This document shows positions 2,882 to 52,320 of a stretch of 64,000 nucleotides of DNA, in pieces (positions within the stretch are counted from its first letter, which is position 1; each line of letters begins with the position of its first letter). The stretch covers positions 5,058 through 69,057 of IMG/VR virus record IMGVR_UViG_3300019845_000023; one strand, written 5' to 3'. The stretch comes from a virus (Duplodnaviria; Heunggongvirae; Uroviricota; Caudoviricetes). The notes beneath the pieces were generated by a model. That model was not told the origin of the DNA. It saw nothing but the letters and a program-made list of their open reading frames with translations, and searched no databases. Position numbers and translations under genes: made by a program.

Positions 2882-2957
2882 TTTGGCGCGCCGCCAAGGA
2901 CTCGAACCCTGACCGTTTGGGTTGGAACCAAGTATGCTACCATTACACCAACGACGC
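2882..2957 (-). tRNA. tRNA-Trp (CCA)
   Basis: GGTTCGAGTCC T-arm; 7-bp acceptor with G-U pairs; anticodon loop UUCCAAC. Confidence 0.65.
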
Positions 2958-3301
2958 ATATAAGGAATCAGTTGCCTTCCTGTCGTCAGAGCTTTTCAGG
3001 GCTTCTGATACTTTAGTACTTGGCTACCAACTCCCCATTCAATTGAAATGGAATGATTGTCCATTGCCCGTCGACTGACAACTTCACGCCTATCTCTGGC
3101 AACTCGTAGGTGAGTCAAACCTCAACTGCCATACTCCCAGTTGATTTGGAGGGTAGTTCTAATGCTTTATCCTGAAACACTACCAAAGTCAGTCGTGACG
3201 AGCACTGAATCACCTGCACCCGCACGTTTCTACAATATGGTGTAGAGGGTTGATAAATCCTTGCACCATAAGGGAACTGTTTTTATGAGCCGCCAAGCTC
3301 A

Positions 3302-3377
3302 TGGTGCCCCAGACTGGTGTCGAACCAGTTCCTGCGGATTTTCAGTCCGCCGCTTCTACCGAGTTAGCTTCCGAGGC
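3302..3377 (-). tRNA. tRNA-Phe (GAA)
   Basis: cloverleaf; anticodon stem GCGGA/UCCGC; loop CUGAAAA. Confidence 0.65.
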
Positions 3378-3475
3378 ATTTATCAAGATAGGTTATACTT
3401 TGTGGATTTGAACCACTTCAATTTTTCTCAAAATAAAAAATCTTTAACCATTTGGTTTGCTGTGCCTATCTTTAT

Positions 3476-3551
3476 TGGTGGACTCGAAGGGAGTCGAACC
3501 CTCGACCTCCTGCTTGCAAGGCAGGCGCTCTCCCAATTGAGCTACGAGCCC
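3476..3551 (-). tRNA. tRNA-Ala (TGC)
   Basis: G3-U70; close to E. coli Ala; loop CUUGCAA. Confidence 0.75.
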
Positions 3552-3781
3552 ATTAACAAGGTAGCCGTACGCACTACTTTCATATTCCAGAAGCTGCTTG
3601 TCAGCTCGGTCAATCACCGTCTCGTGGGATTCCGTTCACGCCGCTTAATAAGTAGCAGTACTTAAACGCAACTATTATGGCGTTCCGACAGATAATTTCT
3701 TTAACTTGAAGAAACTACCAAATACGGTGCTCAGTGTCCCTGTGCCGCAGGGGAAGTTTATTCACGACACTTCCAAACGAA

Positions 3782-3859
3782 TGGTGCCTGTGGCGGGCAT
3801 CGAACCCACGACCTTACGCTTATGAGGCGCACACTCTAAACCATCTGAGCTACACAGGC
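3782..3859 (-). tRNA. tRNA-Met (CAT)
   Basis: loop CUCAUAA. Confidence 0.55.
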
Positions 3860-3955
3860 ATTTCTAATCGGTTACTGTTTAATACTGGCGGCACCTAAGC
3901 GGCTGCTTTTACGACAGTTCCGCACTCGAAGGTAAGAACCGATATTAAGAAACCT

Positions 3956-4030
3956 TGGTACTCACAGCCAGACTTGAACTGACAACTTCTTCCACGTCAA
4001 GGAAGCACTCTACCATTGAGTTATGCGAGT
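3956..4030 (-). tRNA. tRNA-Val (GAC)
   Basis: stem CUUCC/GGAAG; loop UUGACGU. Confidence 0.55.
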
Positions 4031-4074
4031 ATTAATGGGGGTTAGTTTAAGGAGGGTTTTCCCCGACCCTCGAA

Positions 4075-4149
4075 TGGCACCCCCAGTAGGAATCGAACCT
4101 ACATCACACGCTTAGAAGGCGCGTGCACTCTCCGTTATGCTATAGGGGC
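4075..4149 (-). tRNA. tRNA-Arg (TCT)
   Basis: stem CGCGC/GCGUG with G-U; loop CUUCUAA. Confidence 0.55.
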
Positions 4150-4152
4150 ATT

Positions 4153-4229
4153 TGGTTGCGGGAGAAGGATTTGAACCAACGACCTCAAGATAATGAATCT
4201 TGCGAGCTACCAGACTGCTCCACCCCGCA
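4153..4229 (-). tRNA. tRNA-Met (CAT), initiator-like D-arm
   Basis: TGGAGCAG.CTGGTAGCTCG resembles fMet; loop UUCAUUA. Confidence 0.55.
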
Positions 4230-4531
4230 ATATGTGCCGTTGAAAGATTTGCAACTCTTTCGGAAGGCTATCCAAGTCAATTTTACGTCTGAGGCTCAGC
4301 GACGACATACTCCGTAATTGCCACGGCGTCTTTTTACCTAAAGACACGGTAGGGAATAGGTTACTCACTCCTAAACAAGTTATCTGGTCCTTCTACCAGC
4401 ACTATCTCTGCATCACGTCCAGAACACCCGAAGTCAGTTCTTAGCACACCGACTCAAAAACTACGACCGCTTAGAGGTGCCGCGCCCCATATGTTTCCCT
4501 TTATTTTACAGTTGAGACTGGTATTCAACTC

Positions 4532-4605
4532 TGGTTTCCCTTGCAGGAGTCGAACCTACATTATCTGTTTCAGAGACAGGCGTCCTACCATTAGACGAAA
4601 GGGAA
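4532..4605 (-). tRNA. tRNA-Gln (CTG)
   Basis: loop CUCUGAA. Confidence 0.6.
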
Positions 4606-4610
4606 ATATC

Positions 4611-4690
4611 TGGTGACGGCACGGGGGCTCGAACCCCGACTCTCCAGCTTGAGAGGCTGGCGTGTTGACCAGTTCCACTATGCCGCCATC
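4611..4690 (-). tRNA. tRNA-Glu (CTC)
   Basis: stem CCAGC/GCUGG; loop CUCUCAA. Confidence 0.55.
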
Positions 4691-4740
4691 CACACGGCGG
4701 AACTATTGCTCCGCCGCGAATGCTTCAGTTTGAAGGGTTA

Positions 4741-5157
4741 TCAGCCCTCTGCCTCAGCCTCAGCCTTAGCAGGAGCCTTAGAAACGAACTCTACACCTGT
4801 GAGAGTGTAAGTCTTAACCTTACCCTTACCTGTTGCAGACTTTGCCTCGCCCTCTGCAACAACACCGTCAGCCTTAAGTGCTCTCATAAGAGCAGATGCC
4901 TTCTGTGTAGAAACACCAAGCATCTCAGCGACAGCAGATGCAGCGTAAGCAGTCTCTGCGTTTGCCTCAGCAACGAACTTAGCCTTAAGAGCCTCGTTCT
5001 CAGCCTGTGCAGGAGTAAGAGAGTTACGTCTCTTCTCGTTCTTCTCGTCGAGCTTTGTAAGCTCAGCCTTAGCGTAAGTTGCGAGGTCCTCTGCAAGACC
5101 CTCAGTAGCAAGAACGCCGTTAAGGAATGTTCTCATAGTCATCTTCTCGTTAGCCAT
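4741..5157 (-). CDS. Ala/Lys/Glu-rich protein, possible winged-helix DNA-binding protein
   Basis: ORF inside tRNA array with its own promoter block 5225-5271; overlapping + ORFs are low-complexity. Confidence 0.45.
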   Translation of the reverse strand: MANEKMTMRTFLNGVLATEGLAEDLATYAKAELTKLDEKNEKRRNSLTPAQAENEALKAKFVAEANAETAYAASAVAEMLGVSTQKASALMRALKADGVVAEGEAKSATGKGKVKTYTLTGVEFVSKAPAKAEAEAEG

Positions 5158-5224
5158 AATAGCCTCACTTTCTGTGCCTTAGCACGTCGTAATTTGATTT
5201 TTTTTTGAATTGGTTTTCTTGACC

Positions 5225-5271
5225 TTTTCTATAAATATTATACCATATTTTTTAGAAAAAGTCAAATTTTT
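5225..5271 (-). promoter_or_regulatory. consensus promoter block
   Basis: TTGACT-17-TGGTATAAT. Confidence 0.6.
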
Positions 5272-5293
5272 CTTTTCTTTTTCCTTTCGGAAA

Positions 5294-5373
5294 TGGTGAC
5301 GGCAACGGGATTCGAACCCGTGACTCCAGCGTGAAAGGCTGGTGACTTAGACCACTTGTCGATGCCGCCATTA
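5294..5373 (-). tRNA. tRNA-Glu (TTC)
   Basis: paralog of 4611-4690; loop CUUUCAC. Confidence 0.55.
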
Positions 5374-5535
5374 GTTCGGTTTTACTTTGCCTTCTTATTT
5401 GGTAACGGAGCGTTTGCCACAAAGCCACATATCTGACGCTCATTGATAAATCGCTGATTGTCTGCCAGTGGTAGTTGAAACCGTAAATCCATGTTAACGC
5501 TTCGTAGGGTTTAAGGTAGCGGACCCTATGCACCT

Positions 5536-5614
5536 TGGTGGACCTTATGGGAATCGAACCCATCTGTTTTCCTGTTTGCAAAACAGGTGACCACCCCTTG
5601 CAGTCCCAAAGCCC
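5536..5614 (-). tRNA. tRNA-Ala (TGC), second copy
   Basis: G3-U70; loop UUUGCAA; 9-nt D-loop. Confidence 0.5.
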
Positions 5615-5730
5615 ATTTATTTGCAGAGAGGTAAAACTCATAAAACCCTTATCCGCTATCAAAGATACTGTCCGTTTTTCAGGAACGCCCAGAGTTGCTT
5701 CATATCTTTGAAGTTTTAATCTCTTTCTCA

Positions 5731-5775
5731 TTTTCTATAAATATTATACCATATTTTATAGAAAAAGTCAAATTC
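5731..5775 (-). promoter_or_regulatory. consensus promoter block
   Basis: TTGACT-17-TGGTATAAT. Confidence 0.55.
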
Positions 5776-5787
5776 TTTTCTGCTATT

Positions 5788-5873
5788 GGTCGGTAGGGAG
5801 GGACTCGAACCCCCAGCGTTTCAATGTCACTGTTTTACAGACAGCTTGCTTCACCCAGTTTGCATACCTACCG
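5788..5873 (-). tRNA. tRNA-Tyr (GTA), class II
   Basis: long variable arm; loop CUGUAAA. Confidence 0.6.
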
Positions 5874-5980
5874 ATTTGGTGGACATTCTACGCTCATCAG
5901 CGACAGTAGCCCTCACTGGGTTGCAATTTGGTTCTTTGTTAAAGGAGTTCCTCTCTTGCAACTGAAATCCCATCTCCTAT

Positions 5981-6057
5981 TGGTGCCGCCGAGAGGACTC
6001 GAACCTCCGACCTCTCGGTTATCAGCCGAGTGCTCTAACCAGCTGAGCTACGACGGC
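5981..6057 (-). tRNA. tRNA-Ile (GAT)
   Basis: loop CUGAUAA. Confidence 0.65.
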
Positions 6058-6146
6058 ATTTGGTGGCAATTAACGTCTTGCCGCACGACATATGGGTTAT
6101 TATTTTTGTACCTCTCGTAACCTCTTTTGTTCTTAATCGAGCCTAT

Positions 6147-6219
6147 GGTGTGGGATAAGGGAATTGAACCCTCGACACCAGTATGGCAAACTGGTATTTT
6201 ACCACTAAACTAATCCCAC
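6147..6219 (-). tRNA. tRNA-Gly (GCC)
   Basis: loop UUGCCAU. Confidence 0.6.
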
Positions 6220-6222
6220 ATT

Positions 6223-6299
6223 TGGCGAGCACGAAGGGACTTGAACCCTCAACCTCTCGGGAGACAACCGAGCGTTCTACTCATTTGAACTACGCACCC
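6223..6299 (-). tRNA. tRNA-Asp-like (GTC), atypical (U37, no GG in D-loop)
   Basis: loop UUGUCUC. Confidence 0.4.
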
Positions 6300-6392
6300 A
6301 TTTAATTTCTTACTTGCCGCAACGCACCTCACCAATCTTTCAATTGCAGGGAGTTGCACCCTATTCATTGCGACTTTCAGAGGGTTACCCCT

Positions 6393-6468
6393 TGGCGATT
6401 CCGACGGGACTCGAACCCGTAACTGTAGCGTGACAGGCTACTGACTTAACCAGTTAATCGACAGAACC
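6393..6468 (-). tRNA. tRNA-Asp (GTC)
   Basis: T-arm GCGGGTTCGAGTCCCGTC identical to E. coli Asp; loop CUGUCAC. Confidence 0.65.
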
Positions 6469-6511
6469 ATTTATCGGAAGCTTTTCCTCCAGAGGACGGT
6501 TTACCAACCGA

Positions 6512-6558
6512 TTTTCTATATATATTATATCATAATTTTTTCAGAAAGTCAAATTTTT
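6512..6558 (-). promoter_or_regulatory. consensus promoter block
   Basis: TTGACT-...-TGATATAAT. Confidence 0.6.
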
Positions 6559-6559
6559 A

Positions 6560-6856
6560 TTAGGTTATATCCTCGAAATCGCTTTCATCTACACCATACT
6601 CATCGAAGATTTCCTCTTCATTCTCGTCAGTGATTTCAACGATGTCGTAACCACAACCCTCAAGGAACTCATCAAACTCTTCGTCTGTGTAAGAGCCTTC
6701 CCAGCCGAACTCAAGGTGAGTCCAACCTTCTGCGTAATCATAGAGACCTTCTTCCATATAAGCCGCAGCCTGCTCTTCATTTTCTGCGATAAGGAAGCGT
6801 CTGTCATCTGTACCACTGTAACCACAGTAGTAAGTAGCCATATATTTATTTGCCAT
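6560..6856 (-). CDS. hypothetical acidic protein
   Basis: ORF track. Confidence 0.5.
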   Translation of the reverse strand: MANKYMATYYCGYSGTDDRRFLIAENEEQAAAYMEEGLYDYAEGWTHLEFGWEGSYTDEEFDEFLEGCGYDIVEITDENEEEIFDEYGVDESDFEDIT

Positions 6857-6858
6857 TT

Positions 6859-7044
6859 TTATTCTCCTTCGTAAATCTTTTTAAGGTCGAGGTAAAGCTG
6901 GTAAGCATCTACATAAGTAGAATTGTAACCGCCTTCGTTAATTGCAACGACCACATCTCTGTCAAGGAAACCATTTCTTATGAAAGTAACTTCATAGCCC
7001 TCGGTCATTTCTGCCGCTTCAAGAACTATTTTTTCATTTTCCAT
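6859..7044 (-). CDS. hypothetical protein
   Basis: ORF track; promoter 7065-7111. Confidence 0.45.
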   Translation of the reverse strand: MENEKIVLEAAEMTEGYEVTFIRNGFLDRDVVVAINEGGYNSTYVDAYQLYLDLKKIYEGE

Positions 7045-7064
7045 TTTTGTTCCTCTCTTTCATC

Positions 7065-7111
7065 TTTTCTATAAATATTATATCATATTTTATAGAAAAA
7101 GTCAAATTTTT
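7065..7111 (-). promoter_or_regulatory. consensus promoter block
   Basis: same motif. Confidence 0.6.
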
Positions 7112-7118
7112 ATTTGTA

Positions 7119-7207
7119 TGGTCGGCAGGGAAGGACTCGAACCTTCAAGACCCCTAAGGGCAACGGGGTTACAGCCCGCGACGCTACCAGTTACGTTCTA
7201 CCTACCG
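7119..7207 (-). tRNA. tRNA-Tyr (GTA), class II, second copy
   Basis: loop CUGUAAC; long variable arm. Confidence 0.55.
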
Positions 7208-7303
7208 ATTTGGTTGACGTTTAAGTCCGCCTCGCTGCTCATACCCGTTTTTGTTTCGACCGTGAGAACTACATTTGCTCCAAAACTCACTATAAACTTG
7301 TCG

Positions 7304-7381
7304 TTGGCGATACCGACGGGACTCGAACCCGCAACCTCTGGAGTGACAGTCCAGTGCTCTACTCTATTGAACTACGGCACC
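7304..7381 (-). tRNA. tRNA-Asp (GTC), second copy
   Basis: loop CUGUCAC. Confidence 0.55.
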
Positions 7382-7499
7382 ATTTAATTGGAGCGATTAA
7401 GCGAACAGAGGTGTCGCTCCAGTGCAGTCGCTGTGACGTTATCCACACCCTCTTGTAGCGTTTACCATATGACTATTAAGCTACCACAATTTTCGTTTT

Positions 7500-7585
7500 T
7501 GGCGGGACGGACAGGATTCGAACCTGCATAGGAAATAAATTCCGACGGTTAACAGCCGCCTGCCTAACCGTTAGGCTACCGACCC
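7500..7585 (-). tRNA. class-II-shaped tRNA with anticodon GTT (Asn-like)
   Basis: 16-nt variable arm; loop CUGUUAA; one U-U in acceptor. Confidence 0.4.
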
Positions 7586-7588
7586 ATT

Positions 7589-7665
7589 TGGCGGGAAGTA
7601 TAGGACTCGAACCTATGACACCGCGGTTAACAGCCGCGTGCTCTAACCAACTGAGCTAACAACCC
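7589..7665 (-). tRNA. tRNA-Asn (GTT)
   Basis: loop CUGUUAA; acceptor has two U-U mismatches. Confidence 0.5.
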
Positions 7666-7692
7666 ATTTAAAATTGTCTTTCTCTCTTGACC

Positions 7693-7739
7693 TTTTCTAT
7701 AAATATTATATCATATTTTCTAAAAAAAGTCAAATTTTT
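7693..7739 (-). promoter_or_regulatory. consensus promoter block
   Basis: same motif. Confidence 0.6.
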
Positions 7740-7757
7740 ATTTGTTATTGAAGATTA

Positions 7758-7835
7758 TTGGTCGGGCATCGGGGACTCGAACCCCGAACTTACTGATTAA
7801 GAGTCAGTTACGCTAAACCAATTGCGTCAATGCCC
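7758..7835 (-). tRNA. tRNA-Lys (CTT)
   Basis: perfect acceptor; loop CUCUUAA. Confidence 0.7.
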
Positions 7836-8093
7836 GATATCTTAGGGAGCAGTACCACTCCCTAACGAAGTAAGATTACTCCGAGTTGGTTCGTTAAGCT
7901 TGCCAACTACTCACCCCGTTACCCTACACCTGCAACGGTAGATGCCAACTCTTACTCTGCTGACGAGGGAGAGTCTATATCCGACCTACTCTCACTACGG
8001 GACAAGGATTTAACCATCTAACCCTCCTCAAGGTGTCCGTTTTATGCTTGGCGAGGACAAATCCAAGGTTACTACTCGGCTAACCACACCGTA

Positions 8094-8169
8094 TGGGGCT
8101 GGCGACAGGAATCGAACCTGCAACCTTCCGCTTACAAGGCGGACGCACTACCTATTGTGCTACGCCAGC
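8094..8169 (-). tRNA. tRNA-Thr (TGT)
   Basis: perfect acceptor GCUGGCG; loop CUUGUAA. Confidence 0.7.
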
Positions 8170-8188
8170 ATTTCTATCTTGTGCCCTT

Positions 8189-8263
8189 TGGAGATACTGG
8201 TGGGAGTCGAACCCACGACTCCAGTTTTGCAGACTGGTGTCTTAGCCTCTTGACGACAGTATC
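8189..8263 (-). tRNA. tRNA-Cys (GCA) with Glu-type D-arm
   Basis: loop CUGCAAA; D-arm UCGUCAAGAGGCUAAGACA. Confidence 0.55.
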
Positions 8264-8286
8264 TCCAAAAGGCACAAGAATTAAGG

Positions 8287-8667
8287 TTAATCGTCTTGTG
8301 ATATTATGTAATATGATATTTGAGTGTTTTCAATAAATTCGTCCACCCATTTGTTATAGTCTACGTCTTTATAAGCAAAGCCGAGTCTATTAAACAGATG
8401 ATTAGCGGTTTCATAGAGGTCTCCGCCATCTTCATAGAGAGATTCAACAACCCAGTCCATTAAGTCCTTTTCGTCACATCTTAAGCCACGAATGACTCCT
8501 GTATGGGTTACGTTATATTGCTCATTTGTCCAAGTGTACTCGACATCGTGGACGAGATTCTTTAGAGCTTCCTTTGCTTTCTCTATGTAATACTCAAGTT
8601 CACCGAGAACGCCTTCTATCTCTTCATAATTACCATCGGCGATTATATCTGATACGAAATCAAACAT
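8287..8667 (-). CDS. hypothetical protein
   Basis: ORF track; promoter 8685-8732. Confidence 0.5.
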   Translation of the reverse strand: MFDFVSDIIADGNYEEIEGVLGELEYYIEKAKEALKNLVHDVEYTWTNEQYNVTHTGVIRGLRCDEKDLMDWVVESLYEDGGDLYETANHLFNRLGFAYKDVDYNKWVDEFIENTQISYYIISQDD

Positions 8668-8684
8668 CTTTAAACCCCTTTCTA

Positions 8685-8732
8685 ATTTTCTATAAATATT
8701 ATATCATATTTTATAGAAAAAGTCAAATTTTT
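8685..8732 (-). promoter_or_regulatory. consensus promoter block
   Basis: same motif. Confidence 0.6.
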
Positions 8733-8763
8733 GATTTTTGTTTTTTGTTTTTCTTGGAGAAAT

Positions 8764-8838
8764 TGGCACCCTCGGTAGGAATTGAACCCACATCTCAACG
8801 TCCGTAGCGTCGCGTCCTATCCTTTGAACGACGAGGGC
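8764..8838 (-). tRNA. tRNA-Arg (ACG)
   Basis: loop CUACGGA. Confidence 0.6.
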
Positions 8839-8841
8839 ATA

Positions 8842-8918
8842 TGGTCGGAAGTGCGGGATTCGAACCCACAGCCTCGTGCGTCCAAGGCACGCCGTCTACC
8901 AAATTGACGTAACTCCCG
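8842..8918 (-). tRNA. tRNA-Pro (TGG)
   Basis: loop CUUGGAC. Confidence 0.6.
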
Positions 8919-8961
8919 ATAAATGGGGCTACCGACAGGAATCGAACCTGCAACCTATTGA

Positions 8962-9438
8962 TTAATCTAACAATGCTCAGTCTTTCACCTCAGTAAGAAG
9001 ATTAATTTGTTTCTCCAATTCATAATCTTTTGCGAAAGAAATTCCAGCAGTTTGACCATTTTTTGGAGGAGCAAACCTTAAAGTTTTTTCTGTTGAACAT
9101 TCTTTTATTGGGACAATATAACATTTACCTTCCCAATATGTTGCAAAGAAATCAACATCTGCATCAGAATACTTTGAGCGTTTTACTCCGCTACAGTTTA
9201 CTACTGTACTTCTACAGCTAAAACATATAGCATTGTCTGTTCCCTTCTTTAAGCAAGAAGTTTTGACTTGAATTTTATAAAGATGTTTATCAATTTCGAC
9301 AATGAAATCGTACTTTGAGCAGTCTCCATAAGGAATACTTACTGTATATCCCAATTCGACAAAAGCCGTTAAACACCTTAATTCTGTTAAATTACCTTTT
9401 TGTTTACTATCCATTGTTATTTGAGTTTGTTAGACTAA
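8962..9438 (-). mobile_element. 477-bp insertion in a tRNA anticodon loop carrying a PD-(D/E)xK ORF, bounded by 12-bp inverted arms
   Basis: arms at 8962-8973 and 9427-9438 are reverse complements (11 of 12). Confidence 0.5.
8977..9414 (-). CDS. PD-(D/E)xK (Hjc / I-Ssp6803I-like) nuclease encoded inside a tRNA anticodon loop
   Basis: motifs G..E..L..GY.V...YGD...DFIVEIDK..IQVKT; fills an insertion in a Thr-like tRNA gene. Confidence 0.5.
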   Translation of the reverse strand: MDSKQKGNLTELRCLTAFVELGYTVSIPYGDCSKYDFIVEIDKHLYKIQVKTSCLKKGTDNAICFSCRSTVVNCSGVKRSKYSDADVDFFATYWEGKCYIVPIKECSTEKTLRFAPPKNGQTAGISFAKDYELEKQINLLTEVKD

Positions 9439-9516
9439 TCAATTGCTCTACCTATTGAGCTACGGCAGCATCAACACGGGAGGTGTAAAGCCCTCCCGAA
9501 AACTTAAGGGAAGATT

Positions 9517-9681
9517 ATCTGATAGGTGGCTTCTCAGTAACCACCTGAAACTTGAAATAGCCGTCGATGTTTGCACCAGTTGCAGGACAACGCTGAACAA
9601 CGGCATCATTCTTTTCTGCGAAAGCCTTAGCGGACTTTCTGTCTGAAAAACGTGAGATGTAAGTCTTCTTATCAGCCATAG
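9517..9681 (-). CDS. hypothetical small protein (54 aa)
   Basis: hand translation; promoter 9710-9747. Confidence 0.4.
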
Positions 9682-9709
9682 TTTTTTCTTCCTTTCTGAT
9701 TTTCTATAA

Positions 9710-11933: not shown

Positions 11934-12464
11934 TTAGAAATTGATATATGCGTTTATATCTCCGATTAGCTTGAACACAGTGTAATTAGGCTCTTCGTCT
12001 ACATCGCTCCACCAGTTGGTGACCTGCGTAATAGTCTCCCAGCCTTTCTCACCTGCGTTTGGAAACTCCATTCGTTCCCACTGTCCCCTTAATATCTCAA
12101 GAGGGATTTGTCTTTTACGAGAGAAGTTACCCTTTACGCAGCGCTCCCAAGGAGCTGTTACCCATATACAATGGCGTGTAAATGTAGGAAACCACTCTAC
12201 AAACTGCTGTCTCTGACTTGCTGTCAAAGAGTTAGTTGTAAGTATAACATCTTTTCCTGCAATCTCAAGGTCATGCAGGTCCTGATATAACGTATGCCAT
12301 ACTGTAAAGGTATTCTTACGAACCCTTTCGTCGCCGTTGATTTTAGCATAGTATTCATCAACGTCAAGAACCTCTGTGATACTTGGGTTTAAGTTATGGA
12401 TATAATGCGACAGAAATGTCTTGCCGCCGCCACTTATTCCGCATACAAGATAAAAATTTCCCAT
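11934..12464 (-). CDS. P-loop NTPase / kinase (GISGGGKT)
   Basis: Walker A motif near N-terminus. Confidence 0.45.
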   Translation of the reverse strand: MGNFYLVCGISGGGKTFLSHYIHNLNPSITEVLDVDEYYAKINGDERVRKNTFTVWHTLYQDLHDLEIAGKDVILTTNSLTASQRQQFVEWFPTFTRHCIWVTAPWERCVKGNFSRKRQIPLEILRGQWERMEFPNAGEKGWETITQVTNWWSDVDEEPNYTVFKLIGDINAYINF

Positions 12465-12481: not shown

Positions 12482-12827
12482 TGGTGGAGGCGAGGAGAAT
12501 CGAACTCCTGTCCGAACCTCGTCATATCTATCGTCTACAAGCTTAGTCCATTTTTTTATACAAGTTTCACGCCTTAAAGGACAAACAGTCTGTTAACTCG
12601 TCTTGTCAAGATAGTCCATCAGGCACAGACAAGAACGTGCAAGTGAACCGTTTTTTATATAGACCATATCACAGTGTAGCTTTCACTGTTGAATGATATG
12701 GCAAAGTGTTAAAAGTGCTGCTCAGGCAGCGATTGCATAATCTGCGTTTATATTTAAAAGTGGCTATATGGGTGCCGCCCGCTTGCAGATAGGGAACTCA
12801 GAAATCCGTCGAAACCTTTACGCCCCC
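12482..12827 (-). ncRNA. ssrA: tmRNA (SsrA-like)
   Basis: 5' GGGGGCG...GGUUUCGACGG; 3' GGACAGGAGUUCGAUUCUCCUCGCCUCCACCA; G3-U70; internal tag frame ...ADYAIAA-UGA. Confidence 0.6.
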
Positions 12828-18083: not shown

Positions 18084-18261
18084 CTATTTCTCCGAACTCT
18101 GAATTGTATTCTACGCAATAATGCATTACGCCGTGCCCCTGCACGATGAGGTCCATCCATTGACAGACCTCTGCGTGCTTCTGTGCCCATTCATTTATTT
18201 CTGCAAGCTCGTCATTGGAAATGCGAGCGTCAGCCTTATCCCAAAGTAATCCCCCTGCCAT
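17995..18261 (-). CDS. hypothetical Cys-rich protein
   Basis: ORF track. Confidence 0.45.
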   Translation of the reverse strand: MAGGLLWDKADARISNDELAEINEWAQKHAEVCQWMDLIVQGHGVMHYCVEYNSEFGEIDVGAYCTCGKRYYTGCGEMPPVGEGFKDV

Positions 18262-19391
18262 TATGCGTCCTCCTTTAACTCAATCTTGAAAAGCGAAATG
18301 AACTTCTTGGTATCCATAGTCTCTACGGCATTTACAAGACGACCGTCGTACTCCGCGAAGTACAATGCACCGTACTTGTTCTTACCGTAGTCCTGTGCGA
18401 ACCACTTACGTGCAGTACGGTCGCCCTCCTCGAATGGATGCTCATTCTTCCAAAGAGCTACGTCCTGACGAATCTTCTCCTCTATACCCTCAGCACGGTC
18501 AATCTGATGCTTAACGTCGTCAAACACAGACTGGTACTCAGGGAAGTAAGATAAGAACTCGTAGTGGTCATTTGCACGAATAAGGTCTACGATACGCTCA
18601 AGAGTTAAAACACCATTGTTCTTTGCCTTGTGCATCTCAAAGTAAAGAAGTGTCTTAATCTTTACACGCTCATTGTACTGGTCACGAACTACGATGCCCT
18701 CATGACCCTCTGGCATATCTGCAACAAGCTGACGGTAGTCATTCTCGTTATTTAAGATATAAGCCTTTGGTATCTCAACTCTAAGCATCTTAGAGTATGC
18801 ATGAAGTGCAGGGTTAGTTAACTCGCGTAAGGTTGTCATATAACGCATAGAGAGAAGGTATACCTTAGTCTCAGGATAGTCGATGACTACCTTATTGTAA
18901 GGAGATACAAGCTCGAAAGTCCAGCAGATATTCTCGTAACGATTGCCTACAAAAGTAGACAAAGGAAGAACAGACTCGAAAAGCTCACCGAAGTTCTTGT
19001 AAGGACCTACACCCGCAAGCTCAGCCTTGAAAGCATCAATAGTACCGTTGGTAGAAAGATGCCACTTGCCACGAGCATACCATACAGACATAATAGAGCC
19101 GTCAATCTTCTCGGTTGCAACGGCAGTATTCCAGTCGAGCTTAGCTGCGTAGAACTCGTCTACATTGAAGAACTTCTTGAACGCGTAGCGAACTACACGG
19201 AAGTTGTCCTGAGAATCAAGTATAAGACCACGAGCCTCCTTGCAAATTTCCTGAGAGAAGTCGGAAGCTATTTGGTTATACTTGAAAAGAACGAAGCCGT
19301 CGTCCTCAGAAATCTTTAAGTTGTAAGGCGCATCAGCCAAAAGCTCACGCCAGTTATCGTGTGCAAGGATAAACTCCTGTATCTTTAACAT
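18261..19391 (-). CDS. RNA ligase 1 (T4 RnlA family)
   Basis: nucleotidyltransferase motif I TEKIDGS, EGIVVR motif IV, KIK motif V; start trimmed to MLKIQ after GGGAGAG RBS. Confidence 0.7.
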   Translation of the reverse strand: MLKIQEFILAHDNWRELLADAPYNLKISEDDGFVLFKYNQIASDFSQEICKEARGLILDSQDNFRVVRYAFKKFFNVDEFYAAKLDWNTAVATEKIDGSIMSVWYARGKWHLSTNGTIDAFKAELAGVGPYKNFGELFESVLPLSTFVGNRYENICWTFELVSPYNKVVIDYPETKVYLLSMRYMTTLRELTNPALHAYSKMLRVEIPKAYILNNENDYRQLVADMPEGHEGIVVRDQYNERVKIKTLLYFEMHKAKNNGVLTLERIVDLIRANDHYEFLSYFPEYQSVFDDVKHQIDRAEGIEEKIRQDVALWKNEHPFEEGDRTARKWFAQDYGKNKYGALYFAEYDGRLVNAVETMDTKKFISLFKIELKEDA

Positions 19392-19393
19392 TT

Positions 19394-19606
19394 TTATCTC
19401 TCCCTTATGTATTGCCAAAGCTGATTACCAGCTTTTAACATCGCTTTTATTTCTTTACTATTTTCAATTTGTTCTCTCTCTTCTGGAGTATAAAGCGACA
19501 TAGACCAGCCGCAGAAAGCGGGACTATCGCCTTCATCGAAATCATAATTAAATCTATCAATTATTATTTCGATTTCTTCTTTCGTGAGGTCAAGAGTTAC
19601 TTTCAT
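19394..19606 (-). CDS. hypothetical protein
   Basis: ORF track. Confidence 0.45.
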   Translation of the reverse strand: MKVTLDLTKEEIEIIIDRFNYDFDEGDSPAFCGWSMSLYTPEEREQIENSKEIKAMLKAGNQLWQYIRER

Positions 19607-22381: not shown

Positions 22382-22893
22382 TATATATCCTCCTTATAAG
22401 CATCAGGCCAGTTCTCCTTTGGACAAAAGCTAACAGGTTTCTTGTATCTGTAAGCCTTTTTGAGTGTACTCCAAACGCCGCCCTTCTGATGTCCATCGAA
22501 AATAGCAAACATAAAGTCACAGTTCTTCGCCATATACTCGTCACGGTCATTGTCGCAACCCCTTACCCAAGCATCATGGATATTAATAACCTCGTCTGCT
22601 CTCTCCATAATCTGATTATATACAGGGTCTTTTCTGCCATAACCTGTACAAGGACAAATACAACTTACCTTAACAGGAAAGCCTGACTGTTTCATTAGTG
22701 TGGCAACATATCCCATTACGATATCTGCGCCACTTGCCATACCTGTGAATACAGTTATTTCGCCGTACTTGTCAATAAATTCTTTCAGGGTATTATGTAT
22801 CCAGTAACGAATGGGAGCCCATTCGTTACCTCTAACATCAAGGGGCAGACCAAGACGCTCTGGTCTGTGCCCCGTCATAGCTATTGTTTTCAT
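22381..22893 (-). CDS. SLOG-superfamily protein (DUF1273 / YpsA-like)
   Basis: IAMTGHRPERLG N-terminus and GxxSGADIV motif match YpsA. Confidence 0.6.
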   Translation of the reverse strand: MKTIAMTGHRPERLGLPLDVRGNEWAPIRYWIHNTLKEFIDKYGEITVFTGMASGADIVMGYVATLMKQSGFPVKVSCICPCTGYGRKDPVYNQIMERADEVINIHDAWVRGCDNDRDEYMAKNCDFMFAIFDGHQKGGVWSTLKKAYRYKKPVSFCPKENWPDAYKEDI

Positions 22894-23600
22894 TAGATTA
22901 CCTCCTTATAGATGAAAGTAATATCTGCTCCATACTTCTTCTTTCTCTTTACCTGTGAATTGCAGCAGTCCTTTAAGGAGCTCTTAATCTGTGGAGCGTC
23001 CTGTCCGCAGTATGCAGAAATGAACTGCGCCGCCTGACCTAATCTGAGGTTCTCAGCAGTATTACCGCCAGTTGTTACTGTAAAGAGAACGCCATTGTCC
23101 TCTATATCAACTGGAACAGAAGAGCTACCCTTCTTCTTGTTCTTCTTCTTCTTTGTTTTAACAGAACCGTCGGAGTTTAATCCGTGGCTCTTATAGACAT
23201 TCTTACGTCTGTTTGAAGAAAGGTCAGGTGTTCCTCTTAAACCATGAATGTACTCAAAAGCGCCAATCTCCTTAAGTCCCTCAATGAAGGTCTCAAGAGC
23301 CTCATCGTGCTCGTTTTCCTTCTTTGAAAGCCAACGGAGGTTCTTTAAAGAGTTGTCACGCTTGTTGTGGTTAATGTGGTCAACTGTAAGAGTCTCATCT
23401 GCTACTGGCATCCAAGTCTTTAATACCAGACGATGAGCAGGAATCCATATCGAACCGAAGCGGAAGATAAGGTATCCCTGACAAGGAGCAGGAAAGATTT
23501 CCTTCTTGTCCTTGTCTCTGAAGCGACCCTGATTGGATACGTATACATTATATTCTTTATTGAACTTCCAACGCTCTATTGAGAAATGAATATTGAACAT
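22893..23600 (-). CDS. HNH homing endonuclease-like protein
   Basis: AHRLV...DHINHNKRDN...NLRWLSKKEN HNH motif. Confidence 0.65.
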   Translation of the reverse strand: MFNIHFSIERWKFNKEYNVYVSNQGRFRDKDKKEIFPAPCQGYLIFRFGSIWIPAHRLVLKTWMPVADETLTVDHINHNKRDNSLKNLRWLSKKENEHDEALETFIEGLKEIGAFEYIHGLRGTPDLSSNRRKNVYKSHGLNSDGSVKTKKKKNKKKGSSSVPVDIEDNGVLFTVTTGGNTAENLRLGQAAQFISAYCGQDAPQIKSSLKDCCNSQVKRKKKYGADITFIYKEVI

Positions 23601-30008: not shown

Positions 30009-30434
30009 TTACTTCACCTCTGGCTTCTCCTTAAAGAACTTACGAATATTGAACCATTTGTTCTTAGTGATGTGCCCGATGTCAGTAATAATGCCGTCAG
30101 TGATTTTTATTCTGAGATACTTATTAGGTAAATCTTCCCACTTGTTTACACCGATTACCTTTAGAACTTCTCTTATCAGTTCATCGGTATAAGGATAGCT
30201 TATATATTCTGTTGGTCCAAGTGATGGAGTAGTGAAATGACCGAACTGAGTTGTGAAATCAGAGCAATAGTCTGGTGTTGAAAGAGAAGGGTGCGCGTCA
30301 TCATAGAATATAGTTCTTATGTAAAAGAACAATGGCCCTGTGCCGTCGTAGAGACCAAGACAAGTGGACTCTATCTGTGCATTATAAATTCCGTCAACCA
30401 TTACTTGTCCTCCTCGTTGAGGTACTTGATGCAC
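30009..30434 (-). CDS. hypothetical protein
   Basis: ORF track. Confidence 0.5.
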   Translation of the reverse strand: MHQVPQRGGQVMVDGIYNAQIESTCLGLYDGTGPLFFYIRTIFYDDAHPSLSTPDYCSDFTTQFGHFTTPSLGPTEYISYPYTDELIREVLKVIGVNKWEDLPNKYLRIKITDGIITDIGHITKNKWFNIRKFFKEKPEVK

Positions 30435-30970
30435 TCATCAACCTTTGCATTGAAATCCTCAATAACCTGCTCAATAGAAACAGGTGTGCAGTTATGTGCA
30501 TCTGCCGCCACGTTGTACATATAAGGTCTGTCCTCGAAGAACTTATCCTTGCTATGAGTGTGACCGAAGATGTTGATTACTGCTCTATGAGGGTCCTGCT
30601 CAAGACCTGCTGTGAGTGTAGGATAATGGCAGAGGAAGAATGTTCTCTTCTTGTACTTAAGACGGAGTGCGTCAGCAATCTCGACAATATTATCCCAGTT
30701 GTCATACTCATCAATCTTAGCAGGCGTATCGTGATTTCCTACAATAAGATGAATCCTGCCCTTCAGAGTGTAGAGAACGTCCTTAATGAACTCCCAATCT
30801 GTGCCGAGGAAGAAGTCTCCAACAACATAGATGTCGTCCTCATCTGTAACAGTCTTATTCCAATTTTCAATGAGAGCCTTATGCATCTCATTAATGTTGC
30901 TGAACCCTCTCGGTCCAAATACGAACTCTCGGTCATGACCAAAATGGCAATCGCTAATAAAATAAATCAT
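30401..30970 (-). CDS. metallophosphoesterase (calcineurin-like)
   Basis: DCHFGHD...GDFF...GNHD motifs; start trimmed to MIYFISD after AAGGAGG. Confidence 0.65.
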   Translation of the reverse strand: MIYFISDCHFGHDREFVFGPRGFSNINEMHKALIENWNKTVTDEDDIYVVGDFFLGTDWEFIKDVLYTLKGRIHLIVGNHDTPAKIDEYDNWDNIVEIADALRLKYKKRTFFLCHYPTLTAGLEQDPHRAVINIFGHTHSKDKFFEDRPYMYNVAADAHNCTPVSIEQVIEDFNAKVDECIKYLNEEDK

Positions 30971-33372: not shown

Positions 33373-34305
33373 TTATCTGCTCTTAAGCATATCTCTTACG
33401 TATGTCATTGTAAGGCTACCGCAAATCTTACCAAAGTTCTCGCAAGCTGCGACTACCTCTGGCTCCTCCTTACGGCAATCCTCATACATCATCTTAGGAA
33501 GTACCTTTGCGATTGCTCCCATATCGTGCTCGTCCCAATCAGGTCTAAGCTGACCCTCATCGACAAGCTTCTGAAGACACTTCTCAGTTCTACGAGCAGT
33601 TGCAACACTTGCTATGTACTGTCTCTCAGCCTCTCTCTTCTTGAGCTCCTCTGGGTCTACAGGCTTGTGATGGTCCTGATGAACCTCGGAAAACTTCTCT
33701 GCGACAATCTTAAGGTATGAAGGAGTTCTGCTGTTCTTGTTGTCAAGTCTGTCCTGAGACTTAATAACGACGCCCTCACCACAAGGCTCTGCGCCGAGCA
33801 TAGACTGACCTACAAGCTGGTAAACAGTATCCCAACCTCTGAACTCACCTGTGTAGAAGATAGGAACAAAGTAGATTACCTGCTGAGTAAGCTGTACTGC
33901 GTTCTCAAGTCCCTTGAAGATTGCGTATGTGTCCTCGTGAGGGAGGTACTCCTCTGTCTGAGTATCCCATACGTCGAACATATAGAAGTTCTTGTATCTG
34001 TTCTCAGGGTACTTGATTGTATGCTTTGTAAGCCACTCGCCGAAGATTACATATCTGCCGTGCTGTGTAAGCATATCAATCTGAGAAACGTTGAGCTGCT
34101 GTGCCCAGTTCCAGAAACCGTTGAGTGTGTTAGCCTCATTAAGCTGGTTCTTACGAGAAAACGCAAGAACAGTATTTGTTGTGGGGTCATATGTGAATGA
34201 TGCATTTGAGCCGTCAACCTTCTCGGTAATCGTTACCTGCTCACCGAGTGAAAAGACGGTATCATACTTCTCCTTGAAACGCTCGATATCTACATACTTT
34301 TTCAT
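33373..34305 (-). CDS. RNA ligase 2-family (Rnl2-like) nick-sealing ligase
   Basis: motif I TEKVDGSN, FGEW (III), EGVVIK (IV), K.K (V). Confidence 0.7.
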   Translation of the reverse strand: MKKYVDIERFKEKYDTVFSLGEQVTITEKVDGSNASFTYDPTTNTVLAFSRKNQLNEANTLNGFWNWAQQLNVSQIDMLTQHGRYVIFGEWLTKHTIKYPENRYKNFYMFDVWDTQTEEYLPHEDTYAIFKGLENAVQLTQQVIYFVPIFYTGEFRGWDTVYQLVGQSMLGAEPCGEGVVIKSQDRLDNKNSRTPSYLKIVAEKFSEVHQDHHKPVDPEELKKREAERQYIASVATARRTEKCLQKLVDEGQLRPDWDEHDMGAIAKVLPKMMYEDCRKEEPEVVAACENFGKICGSLTMTYVRDMLKSR

Positions 34306-41431: not shown

Positions 41432-41470
41432 TACACATCTCTCCTTCAAGATAATTATTTTTGTTTGCTG

Positions 41471-42828: not shown

Positions 42829-42829
42829 T

Positions 42830-51396: not shown

Positions 51397-52320
51397 TTAG
51401 TGCGCCGCCTTATCAGCTTCGTGAAGACGCTCAAGGTCACGCATAAAGTCTGCACTATAACGAGCTGCCATCTTCTCCATATACTTCTCGCCCTTGTAGT
51501 GGTCCATATGGTGGTTGATTAAAAGAACGATATAGTGATTACGGTCAGAGCAACCAGTATGAGATAAGTAGAAGTATGCTCCTACATTCTCATGGTTATA
51601 GAAGTGTGCCTCTTCTGTAGGGTTGTTGCGAGCGTCGTGATAAACCTTGCAGTAAGGCTTACCAATATCGTGGAAGAGTGCCGCAGTTCTTACTAAGTCA
51701 GAACGAGTTGAGTCTCTTACTGTCTTATTCATCTCGTCAACGATATACTTCTCTGCCGCTCTCATATGTGCGCCGATAGTTAAAGAGTGGTGATGATTAT
51801 CGTGAGGGATATTATCAGCTTCGAAAAGCATTTCTCCTATTACATCGAAGTTATTATCATTACCGAAAGTCATTATCTTATCCCAACCCTCAGAGTAGTC
51901 AGGTACCTCGAAGCTTCTAAGCATACGGTCGAGAACGAACTCAGGAACGACACGCTCACGGGAAGCATTACGCTCCTTTACAACCTCGAAAGGAGGTACG
52001 CAAAGAACGCATATCTTTACAAGGTCAGGTATCTTAGATAACTCCTTTAAGAAGCCTATACGACGCTTAGCATTGACGTTTGTTGCGTCATAGTAAACAT
52101 CGACATTAGCCTTTAAAAGGTCGCGAGTACGAGTTAACATTAAGTTGAATACTTCTGCGTTATGAGTCTGGTCATTAACGTCTCCAAATACGTCCTGCCG
52201 TATCTGGTCAGAAGATACATAAGCTGCTTCAGAGAAGTAAGCCTTATATAAAGTAGACTTACCAGAGCCAGGGAGTCCTACAGTGAAAAATAATCTTGGC
52301 ATATTTAGTCTCCTTTCCAT
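51397..52320 (-). CDS. polynucleotide kinase fused to an HD phosphohydrolase
   Basis: N-terminus LFFTVGLPGSGKST...SSDQIRQDVFG matches T4 Pnk kinase; C-terminal H..HD motifs. Confidence 0.65.
   Translation of the reverse strand: MERRLNMPRLFFTVGLPGSGKSTLYKAYFSEAAYVSSDQIRQDVFGDVNDQTHNAEVFNLMLTRTRDLLKANVDVYYDATNVNAKRRIGFLKELSKIPDLVKICVLCVPPFEVVKERNASRERVVPEFVLDRMLRSFEVPDYSEGWDKIMTFGNDNNFDVIGEMLFEADNIPHDNHHHSLTIGAHMRAAEKYIVDEMNKTVRDSTRSDLVRTAALFHDIGKPYCKVYHDARNNPTEEAHFYNHENVGAYFYLSHTGCSDRNHYIVLLINHHMDHYKGEKYMEKMAARYSADFMRDLERLHEADKAAH

Follow-up and report, generated by a model that had tools for sequence, protein, structure and literature searches.

The stretch of DNA considered here (the window) comprises 64,000 nucleotides of a phage of the Caudoviricetes (IMG/VR record IMGVR_UViG_3300019845_000023, positions 5,058 to 69,057), and its subject is a transfer RNA (tRNA) gene on the minus strand, at 9469-8924, that is interrupted between tRNA positions 36 and 37 (36|37) by a 470-nt insert. 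The 5' tRNA part (9469-9439) reads GCTGCCG TA GCTC AATAGGTA GAGC A ATTGA, which represents the acceptor strand, the D-arm and the 5' strand of the anticodon stem, and the 3' part (8961-8924) reads TCAAT AGGTT GCAGG TTCGATT CCTGT CGGTAGC C CCA. Joining 9469-9434 to 8963-8924 yields a tRNA-Thr(AGU) of 76 nt with a complete cloverleaf, in which the exon-exon junction left by removal of the insert is ...AATTGATTAGT|AATCAATAGG. In its D-loop, variable loop and T-arm this tRNA does not differ from the intact tRNA-Thr(UGU) at 8094-8169, a relationship that a preliminary description of this DNA had pointed out. ARAGORN in its default mode does not call the split tRNA-Thr in the window, and calls a single tRNA across 8924-9469 when introns are allowed. 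The cloverleaf and this call support the anatomy and the tRNA-Thr(AGU) identity proposed in the preliminary description, whose coordinates for the split tRNA and its insert proved exact throughout when checked against the sequence.

The insert begins and ends with sequences that prolong the anticodon stem. A 12-nt arm, TTAGTCTAACAA (9438-9427), directly follows the 5' stem strand and a second, TTGTTAGATTAA (8973-8962), directly precedes the 3' stem strand. These had been described as reverse complements of each other, which is not strictly so for the DNA; the arms form 11 Watson-Crick pairs and one G·U pair, so that all 12 positions pair as RNA and the 17-bp helix stands, but perfect complementarity at the DNA level does not. 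The chance of 12 pairs at a fixed position with G·U allowed is 0.375^12, or about 1e-5. When the 546-nt transcript is folded, the acceptor, D and T arms are retained in the minimum free energy and centroid structures alike, as are the 17-bp helix and another helix of 4 bp (helix 2), with a folding z-score of -4.6 relative to 100 shuffled sequences.

Most of the insert is occupied by an open reading frame (ORF), which takes up 438 of the 470 nt and leaves only about 32 nt non-coding. Its product gives a full-length match to Pfam family PF11645 (PDDEXK_5; E=6.5e-29, 101 bits against a cut-off of 26) and matches the sequence of the I-Ssp6803I crystal structure 2OST (E=5.9e-9), and the two matches bear out the earlier assignment to the I-Ssp6803I-like PD-(D/E)xK nucleases. 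Among 74 intron-borne homologues the catalytic residues D36, Q49 and K51 never vary, and E11 is kept in 99%. I-Ssp6803I itself is a tetramer, the homing endonuclease encoded by the group I intron of the Synechocystis tRNA-fMet gene (PMC2175346, PMC3384342); the DNA that it targets is a pseudopalindrome, the anticodon stem-loop of the tRNA-fMet gene, which it cleaves across the minor groove to leave 3' overhangs (PMC2175346), and its specificity window is given as 17 bp (PMC3424549). From its homology and its site of insertion, the window endonuclease is predicted to cut an intron-less tRNA gene around the anticodon. Bonocora and Shub (2001) are said to have found that the I-Ssp6803I overhangs are 3 nt long and flank the anticodon.

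The exact position of the junction is revealed by the Enterococcus phage EFP01 (KY549443, Schiekvirus), in which a homologous ORF, EFP01_109 (50% identical), lies inside a tRNA-Asn(GUU). This interrupted tRNA (locus L115 of our collection, KY549443.1 105242-105777) lacks a GenBank annotation, and only EFP01_109 is listed, as a 'hypothetical protein'. An intact, annotated tRNA-Asn is present at the same place in about 29 related Schiekvirus genomes, EFDG1 and phiSHEF16 included, and alignment of EFP01 with these two shows identical flanks and an insert (463 nt by the ARAGORN call) situated exactly between T36 and A37 (CTGTT|...AAAGC|AACCAG), without duplication, deletion or ambiguity. Such precise presence and absence at one site in collinear phages is the polymorphism that homing is expected to produce, and removal of the insert restores the natural tRNA. 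The element spreads by homing. The preliminary description had left the junction after either position 35 or position 36; this comparison, together with the pairing rule that holds throughout the family (below), places it at 36|37 and eliminates 35. It had also called for a search for the uninterrupted tRNA in related phages, which is answered for tRNA-Asn by the Schiekvirus genomes; for the window tRNA and for the commonest Thr(UGU) allele no intron-less copy is present among the viral contigs searched.

Interrupted tRNAs of this type are numerous. At least 642 relatives of the endonuclease are found in metagenomic protein clusters, and we collected 110 loci around homologues from viral contigs, metagenomes and genomes binned as Oscillospiraceae, Ruminococcus, Acutalibacteraceae and Clostridium. 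In 96 of these (85 distinct sequences) a tRNA spans the homologous ORF; among the 14 exceptions four are cut by contig ends and one has an 813-nt insert that follows the same rule. The latter (L089, 1118-2004) is a tRNA-Pro(UGG) whose insert obeys the anticodon-pairing rule at nearly double the usual length, and may contain a second ORF or a larger endonuclease. With the junction set at 36|37, the majority of the host tRNAs are Thr(UGU), Thr(AGU) is seen in the window and in L065, and the others include Ser(GCU), Gly(UCC), Val(UAC), Ile(GAU), Asn(GUU), Lys(UUU), Ala(UGC), Pro(UGG) and Gln(UUG). The interrupted Ser(GCU) tRNAs have the long variable arm expected of tRNA-Ser, and several phages (L024, L026, L088) carry two interrupted tRNAs each. 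Intron length across the family is 444-491 nt, and the cloverleaf is complete in about 90% of the evaluable loci.

Two loci have degenerate arrangements. In L022 (ORF 1495-1926) the gene stands on its own behind an intact tRNA-Thr, with a Shine-Dalgarno (SD) motif in the usual upstream position; of a tRNA, only the T-arm and the 3' part of the acceptor follow it. In L023 (ORF 1495-1929) there is a tRNA on either side, and the only flanking structure is a hairpin that resembles an anticodon stem and retains the intron helices, without acceptor, D or T arms. PDDEXK_5 homologues are also free-standing between tRNA genes in the cultured phages My1 (L116), PM10 (L117), Morian (L151), BCP12 (L152) and Sf-FR1 (L153), whose hosts are Pectobacterium, Salmonella, Vibrio, Bacillus and Synechococcus, and the family as a whole appears to be specialised on tRNA gene arrays. 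Mini-introns lacking the ORF were sought by their helix signature among the tRNAs of 150 loci and none was seen; nor was one present in 28 viral matches to the type-A 3' junction, of which five are true junctions with the ORF present and one more is cut by the locus edge. Three contigs of 540-598 nt considered as possibly derived from circular RNA are ordinary linear DNA with tRNA flanks.

Comparison of the family members shows that the helix is conserved and that it includes the anticodon. In all lineages the anticodon stem is extended by the pairs 32:38 (often the usual C·A mismatch), U33-A37, 34:-1, 35:-2, 36:-3 and +1:-4 to +7:-10 (plus and minus numbers count intron bases from its 5' and 3' ends), giving an overall helix of about 17 bp that is arranged as 7+3+7 and centred on anticodon base 35. 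The last three intron bases thus change with the anticodon: AGU:AUU, UGU:ACA/AUA/AUG, GAU:AUC, GCU:AGC, UAC:GUA, UUU:AAA and UCC:GGA/GGU. In an ungapped alignment of 60 distinct junctions 91% of cells are paired, compared to 61% in shuffles (none of 500 as high), figures that are somewhat inflated since the register of each junction was picked within ±3 nt by maximum pairs. The covariation score is 0.79 versus 0.20 in shuffles, and at most 42% of cells are paired when the partner strand is slid by 1-3 columns. Pairs 35:-2 and 36:-3 are unbroken in all 60 relatives and use six and three pair types, respectively; 33:37 is likewise never unpaired and +1:-4 is unpaired in a single one, such that the helix is continuous through both splice sites. 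It ends at an asymmetric internal loop with A at +8 facing (C)A at -12/-11, beside which the per-position majorities are C-A-A (+5 to +7) and U-U-G (-10 to -8), without a fixed motif. The loop that the two helices close is made up of the ORF. Beyond the internal loop, helix 2 varies from 4 to 17 bp and also covaries, with duplexes formed from strands of the same locus averaging -6.8 kcal/mol and those from strands of different loci -2.6 kcal/mol (p=2e-22). The non-Watson-Crick cells in the intron part of the 17-bp helix are 69 G·U and only 8 A·C (53 versus 7 among 44 distinct helices), and this excess argues that it is the sense transcript, and not the duplex DNA, that is under selection.

Some similarity of the intron ends to tRNA sequences was also noted. 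The 3' end of the EFP01 intron (L115, approximately 1915-1945) resembles positions 8-36 of its own tRNA (22 of 29 identical in a hand count), and a weaker echo is seen in the window (CUGAGCA-UUG-UUAG versus GAGCAAUUGAUUAG). Permuted tRNA remnants are not a general feature, as the intron ends lack specific similarity to their own tRNA halves across 76 loci (mean z=0.18), and mimicry of a half-site was rejected on inspection because the distal half of the helix is unlike the tRNA stem sequence in most lineages.

There is no evident ribozyme within the insert. An Rfam scan of 8700-9700 with permissive filters reports only the neighbouring tRNAs at E<=10, and neither Intron_gpI (RF00028) nor any other catalytic RNA. 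In a codon alignment of the 74 intron-borne ORFs the four-fold degenerate codons have an entropy of 1.2-2.0 bits along the whole ORF, and since synonymous sites vary freely there is no conserved RNA core hidden in the coding sequence. The last intron base in 64 distinct sequences is A in 43, C in 13, U in 6 and G in only 2, following the anticodon, and exon base 36 (U or C) pairs with intron base -3 at the 3' end and not with an internal guide sequence. Known tRNA introns that encode PF11645 proteins are group I introns (PMC13011429, PMC1995217); that of the Synechocystis tRNA-fMet is 655 nt long and inserted at 33/34 (PMC1995217, PMC3073962), and its ORF overlaps P1/P2 by 61 nt (PMC3073962). 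The phage insert cannot be assigned to this class, given that it has no Rfam core, no constraint at synonymous sites, no terminal G, and so little non-coding sequence; the earlier statement that it has no room for a group I core thus agrees with the Rfam scan, the free synonymous sites and the family-wide lack of the terminal G. Group II introns have a six-domain ribozyme of at least 400-600 nt with a domain V, and their ORF, if any, encodes a reverse transcriptase. An insert of 470 nt in total whose ORF encodes a PD-(D/E)xK nuclease, and which has no Rfam match, is not of this kind. Among small self-cleaving motifs, a hammerhead core (CUGANGA/GAAA) was sought by eye in the leader and tail and none was seen (GUGAAA occurs in just one lineage and is missing from the window); other self-cleaving motifs are covered by the Rfam scan alone.

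The endonuclease gene has an unusual arrangement of translation signals. Its 5' leader in the window (9433-9415) lacks an SD motif, and the SD-like GAGGUGA lies inside the ORF near its 3' terminus, 7 nt ahead of helix 2 when GGAGG is used for the count. The predicted energy of the anti-SD duplex is -9.9 kcal/mol for the tail (the last ORF codons, taken as the 33 nt that precede the 3' strand of helix 2) and +2.2 kcal/mol for the leader. Across 74 loci, anti-SD binding of -8 kcal/mol or better is found in 86% of tails, 1% of leaders and 2.7% of windows from the ORF interior. Typical tail motifs are GGAGGAAGU, GAGGUGA and GAGGAGGUG, and GGAGGAAGU is read in different frames by lineage (...GGSN* versus ...EEVAEH*), indicating that it is conserved as nucleotides and not as amino acids. 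The distance from GGAGG to helix 2 and that from helix 2 to AUG sum to 12-14 nt in 38 of 61 loci, with a mode of 13 (13 in the window), and this spacing holds despite a helix 2 of 4-17 bp and varied splits (4+9, 6+7, 8+5). In homologues outside tRNAs, in BCP12 and L022, the SD motif is in the normal position upstream of AUG. The endonuclease is therefore probably translated from a split ribosome-binding site whose parts come together either through helix 2 or when the excised intron is made circular; were the intron circular, its joined ends in the window phage would read ...CATTGTTAGATT|CTAACAAACTCAA.

Several observations bear on whether the interrupted tRNAs are still functional. The cloverleaves persist as the ORFs diverge to 40% identity with saturated synonymous sites, and the divergence of endonuclease and exons is correlated (Spearman 0.47). 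No intron-less copy of the commonest Thr(UGU) allele is present in 2.9 million viral contigs, nor does the window tRNA have an intron-less match in viral contigs. An intact ORF is nonetheless present at all five checkable true 3' junctions, the catalytic residues are invariant, and an endonuclease that has not decayed although no empty sites are found is unlike the decay that usually follows fixation of homing endonucleases. Of the Thr codons in the window 54% are ACU or ACC, and no other window tRNA reads them by A34 or G34. The phage has other tRNAs with A34, namely Leu(AAG) at 42465-42540 and 44729-44815 (both minus strand) and Arg(ACG) at 8764-8838 (minus strand), and with the split Thr(AGU) these fit the most used codons CUU/CUC, CGU and ACU/ACC. 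A34 is unusual in bacteria outside tRNA-Arg, and implies either inosine formation or decoding by unmodified A34.

Table 1. Features of the interrupted tRNA-Thr gene and candidate RNA-processing genes in the window.
Feature	Coordinates	Strand	Description and basis
5' exon	9434..9469	-	tRNA positions 1-36: acceptor 5' strand, D-arm, stem strand ATTGA, U32 U33, anticodon A34 G35 U36; sequence, ARAGORN
Intervening sequence, 470 nt	8964..9433	-	starts CUAACAAACUCA, ends CUGAGCAUUGUUAGAUU
3' exon	8924..8963	-	positions 37-76: A37 A38, stem strand TCAAT, variable loop, T-arm, acceptor 3' strand, discriminator C, encoded CCA
17-bp helix, 5' strand	9427..9443	-	anticodon stem 9443-9439, then U32 U33, anticodon and intron +1 to +7 (9438-9427); fold, covariation
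17-bp helix, 3' strand	8957..8973	-	intron -10 to -1 (8973-8964; last three, AUU, pair with AGU), A37 A38, stem 8961-8957
Unpaired A (+8), 5' side of the asymmetric internal loop closing the 17-bp helix	9426	-	A in 53/64 distinct relatives
'CA' (-12, -11), 3' side of the asymmetric internal loop	8974..8975	-	-11 is A in 51/64, -12 is C in 38/64
Helix 2, 5' strand CUCA	9422..9425	-	fold and family covariation
Helix 2, 3' strand UGAG	8976..8979	-	includes the ORF stop codon UGA (8979-8977)
ORF, 145 aa, I-Ssp6803I-type PD-(D/E)xK homing endonuclease (E11, D36, Q49, K51)	8977..9414	-	Pfam, PDB match
SD-like GAGGUGA within the ORF 3' end	8985..8991	-	7 nt before helix 2 (GGAGG-based count)
Rnl1-type RNA ligase, candidate sealing enzyme (proposed link)	18261..19418	-	PF09511, E=2e-14
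Rnl2-type RNA ligase, candidate sealing enzyme (proposed link)	33373..34305	-	PF09414, E=8e-28
P-loop kinase (AAA_33) fused to HD phosphohydrolase, candidate end-healing enzyme (proposed link)	51397..52320	-	Pfam
AAA_33 P-loop kinase	11934-12464		Pfam
Calcineurin-like phosphoesterase	30401-31045		Pfam

The scenario we favour, with a probability of roughly 0.55, is that these elements are mobile tRNA introns that lack a ribozyme and whose RNA would be spliced by proteins, through cutting and subsequent ligation. Within the helix the two splice sites would be related by twofold symmetry, 3 bp apart with a 3' stagger; a protein endonuclease would cut both RNA strands there, and an RNA ligase would then join U36 to A37 to give tRNA-Thr(AGU). 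A 7-nt anticodon loop is restored only by cuts after 36 on the 5' strand and before 37 on the 3' strand, positions that are symmetric about the pair 35:-2. For the cutting step, the simplest candidate would be the tetrameric PD-(D/E)xK enzyme that the intron itself encodes. Candidates for the sealing step in the window are the Rnl1- or Rnl2-like enzymes, with healing by a kinase or phosphoesterase if the ends require it, and elsewhere a host enzyme would have to serve. The Rnl1, Rnl2 and kinase genes attributed to the phage in the preliminary description are recognised by Pfam in the window (Table 1), and sealing by the window phage is plausible. Translation of the endonuclease would begin only once helix 2 has set the SD motif beside the AUG, or after circularisation of the excised intron.

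A more specific proposal is that the cuts for splicing are made by the intron-encoded homing endonuclease itself, which would act on the 17-bp RNA helix in place of its approximately 17-bp palindromic DNA target. This we regard as doubtful, though the helix is about as long as the I-Ssp6803I specificity window, and if the 3-nt overhang mentioned above is right the geometry of the cuts would match that of I-Ssp6803I on DNA. The enzyme would then make the same 3' stagger around the anticodon in RNA, and the ligase would both close the anticodon loop and circularise the intron. Circularisation would place the SD motif of the 3' end upstream of AUG across the hairpin, and the endonuclease would be made only from circular intron RNA.

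A number of points weigh against protein-mediated splicing. To our knowledge PD-(D/E)xK homing endonucleases do not cut RNA, and we know of no bacterial or phage enzyme that cleaves an unbroken RNA duplex to leave a 3-nt 3' stagger. In sequence the distal half of the helix is unlike the tRNA half-site, and the pairing percentages carry the inflation already mentioned. The Rnl2-type ligase is absent from every Enterococcus phage in the collection searched, EFP01 included, and because EFP01 bears the intron the window ligases are not a universal partner. Other observations tell little either way: a scan for Rnl1 recovered only five close relatives, all on other contigs; no ligase is encoded within ±10 kb of the intron in three long contigs, and no tRNA_int_endo domain is present among the 41 window ORFs scanned with Pfam, the window being part of the genome. 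The EFP01 insertion is recent, its exons being identical to the intact allele, and EFP01 is therefore uninformative on function. The correlated divergence of exons and endonuclease could stem from the need of homing for exon homology, and the two degenerate arrangements in L022 and L023 also have to be accommodated.

The alternative that deserves most attention is a selfish insertion without splicing, in which the cassette kills a dispensable tRNA gene and the helix serves only expression of the endonuclease, by setting the SD motif beside the AUG and by conferring nuclease resistance. Phage tRNAs are individually dispensable, free-standing homologues are found between the tRNA genes of My1, PM10, Morian, BCP12 and Sf-FR1, EFP01 is viable with its recent insertion, and L022 and L023 are degenerate; moreover, no universal ligase partner is found, and the assembly of the split ribosome-binding site would be reason enough for the helix. 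A helix for expression needs no exon bases, however, yet the final three bases of the intron change in step with the anticodon across at least ten types, and the end of the helix at the conserved loop mirrors its tRNA side (7+3+7). Nor does this explanation predict intact cloverleaves beside ORFs that have diverged to 40% identity with saturated synonymous sites, or an endonuclease that is undecayed even though no empty site is seen for the commonest allele. Simple inactivation had been raised as an alternative in the preliminary description; it is weakened by the covariation that includes exon bases, by the roughly 90% of intact cloverleaves and by the lack of empty sites for the commonest allele, and we consider it possible but somewhat unlikely. 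Excision by host RNase III or Mini-III, as occurs with the intervening sequences of 23S rRNA, seems improbable, whether the halves then stayed unjoined but attached through the acceptor and other stems, or were trimmed and repaired; in the preliminary description RNase III figured only in an in-vitro assay. The near-continuous double-stranded stem of 21-34 bp is a typical substrate for such enzymes, and the conserved asymmetric internal loop is reminiscent of the processing signals of phage T7, but their 2-nt 3' overhangs would yield after joining a loop of 6 or 8 nt and not 7, with the splice sites lying 3 bp apart. Decoding is not to be expected of a tRNA with a nick next to its anticodon, and the covariation is centred on the anticodon and not on the middle of the stem.

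Self-splicing or self-cleavage by a cryptic RNA, either a group I core within the coding sequence or a new small ribozyme made of the helix and its A/CA loop, would accord with the group I nature of the known PF11645-encoding tRNA introns, with the overlap of the Synechocystis ORF and P1/P2, and with the strong base conservation around the internal loop. We find it very unlikely in view of the Rfam scan, the free synonymous sites, the approximately 32 nt of non-coding sequence and the terminal G in just 2 of 64 sequences, together with a 5' exon that ends in U36 or C36 and is paired with the 3' end of the intron in place of an internal guide sequence. Finally, the 17-24 bp inverted repeats at the two junctions could be the terminal repeats of a DNA element, recognised by the nuclease for cut-and-paste movement, with no RNA role. 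The junctions are indeed inverted repeats that incorporate the naturally palindromic anticodon stem, and Hjc-like PD-(D/E)xK enzymes act on branched DNA (PMC3384342). The differences between the arms would be expected to be G·U and A·C type at equal frequency in duplex DNA, in place of the 69 and 8 observed; furthermore, there is no target-site duplication and the endonuclease belongs to a family of proven homing enzymes, so that this explanation is scarcely credible.

Protein-mediated splicing as proposed here has parallels in several known systems. The closest by gene content is the tRNA-fMet group I intron of Synechocystis PCC 6803, which shares the PF11645 family of its endonuclease (I-Ssp6803I), the tRNA anticodon stem-loop as target, insertion into the anticodon loop adjacent to the triplet, and homing. 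Group I introns that encode PF11645 proteins also occur in the tRNA-Arg(UCU) of Bacteroidota and Campylobacterota. All of these are 500-900 nt long with a self-splicing core (the Synechocystis intron has its 150-codon ORF in P1), whereas the phage elements, at 444-491 nt, have no core, terminal G or internal guide sequence, are situated at 36/37 instead of 33/34, and pair the exon with the intron 3' end. In their logic they are more like the archaeal bulge-helix-bulge introns (among which those in rRNA carry LAGLIDADG ORFs, and which EndA cuts and RtcB seals, the introns being released as circles), which likewise have no ribozyme, twofold-symmetric sites, an exon-intron helix and an ORF in a loop; the proposed cleavage and ligation, and the possible circular intron serving as endonuclease mRNA, would be shared features. 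EndA or Sen cleavage produces 2',3'-cyclic phosphate and 5'-OH ends that are subsequently ligated, and we know of no EndA in bacteriophages of Firmicutes. The bulge-helix-bulge has two 3-nt bulges separated by a 4-bp helix, whereas the phage helix is continuous with its sites 3 bp apart, and archaeal introns are canonically at 37/38 with LAGLIDADG enzymes, in contrast to 36/37 and PF11645. The catalytic domain of EndA does belong to the PD-(D/E)xK fold superfamily (PMC3424549). The phage element thus combines the endonuclease and target of the cyanobacterial tRNA-fMet intron with the logic of the bulge-helix-bulge, yet it lacks the defining traits of both, having neither catalytic core nor terminal G and no bulges.

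Other comparisons are more partial. The split tRNAs of Nanoarchaeum equitans are parted in the anticodon loop, with a complementary extension of 12-14 nt beside the stem strands, but those halves are separate transcripts that form a bulge-helix-bulge and are trans-spliced by EndA, whereas the phage halves lie in cis on either side of an ORF and form no bulges. The tRNA repair of phage T4 (Pnkp and Rnl1, which counter the anticodon nuclease PrrC) heals and seals a break in the anticodon loop, and homologous enzymes are encoded in the window. Repair in T4 answers a host attack on an intact tRNA and has never been shown to remove an intervening sequence, and its enzymes were not recovered from all of the intron-bearing phages. 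The free-standing phage PDDEXK_5 genes are of the same protein family and also reside in tRNA arrays, but lie beside a tRNA gene, whereas the gene described here is inside one, has a covarying helix on its flanks that includes the anticodon, and is without an upstream SD motif. Insertion of an endonuclease that splits a gene, the parts of which are reunited after transcription, is a known phage theme from the nrdA and topoisomerase genes of T4-like phages.

Bacterial and phage introns are thought to be ribozymes of group I or II, and enzymatic tRNA splicing is a hallmark of archaea and eukaryotes. Inserts in tRNA genes that lack a ribozyme thus represent either enzymatic splicing in the bacterial virosphere, which if true would be categorically new for bacteria and phages, or a new lifestyle of a selfish gene within a structural RNA gene. 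If the encoded enzyme cut its own transcript, this would be the first pathway of protein-catalysed RNA splicing in bacteria or phages, and the first homing endonuclease to cleave both its DNA target and its own transcript. Among the papers searched, none describes ribozyme-less tRNA introns in phages. The elements occur in gut and rumen phages of Firmicutes and in about ten tRNA species, and their splicing could be one task of the RNA ligases and end-healing enzymes encoded beside the tRNA arrays of many large phages. Phage tRNA counts are underestimated, as default tRNA finders and standard ARAGORN miss all members of the family. To judge from its displaced SD motif, the endonuclease would need either RNA end-joining or a bridging helix for its translation, an arrangement that is rare in bacteria. 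EFP01 and Enterococcus faecium offer a cultured test system in which intron-less sister phages can serve as controls.

Among other features of the window, we note that it has 45 tRNA genes in two arrays (2884-8918 and 42465-48194). A phage transfer-messenger RNA is also located in the region (12482-12827, minus strand; tag ADYAIAA), adjoining the P-loop kinase at 11934-12464. Two adjacent suppressor tRNAs with the anticodon CUA, labelled 'Pyl' by ARAGORN, are present at 46667-46822 (minus strand). In the window TAG terminates just 3 of 75 long ORFs, and readthrough of TAG fuses several (e.g. 59822-60757 and 35742-37154). The endonuclease ORFs of L017, L019, L020, L120 and L122 have in-frame TAG codons at conserved Gln columns, so that TAG is read as Gln in those phages.

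Additional genes with possible roles in RNA metabolism are associated with the tRNA arrays. A PF04308 ORF (RNase H-like, DUF458/YkuK type; E=1.9e-42) lies between tRNA genes of the second array (44054-44596, minus strand), and its product is possibly an RNA-processing enzyme. A DUF2828/DUF7788/vWA protein, of a type that we take to be related to the Ro60/TROVE proteins, is encoded near the tRNA arrays of intron-bearing phages (window 39968-41449 and 37138-37980, minus strand; L156 14119-15600; L157 12818-14281), and close to this gene is a weak match to RlaP, an RNA-repair nucleotidyltransferase. As judged from their domain matches, the RlaP-like and vWA proteins, ligases, kinases and phosphoesterase would together constitute a large RNA-repair tool kit. 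A second homing-endonuclease-like gene that is unrelated to the tRNA insert (HNH_3 and NUMOD4) is situated at 22893-23600 (minus strand) and GIY-YIG genes are found near the intron in L156; such phages have many selfish nuclease genes.

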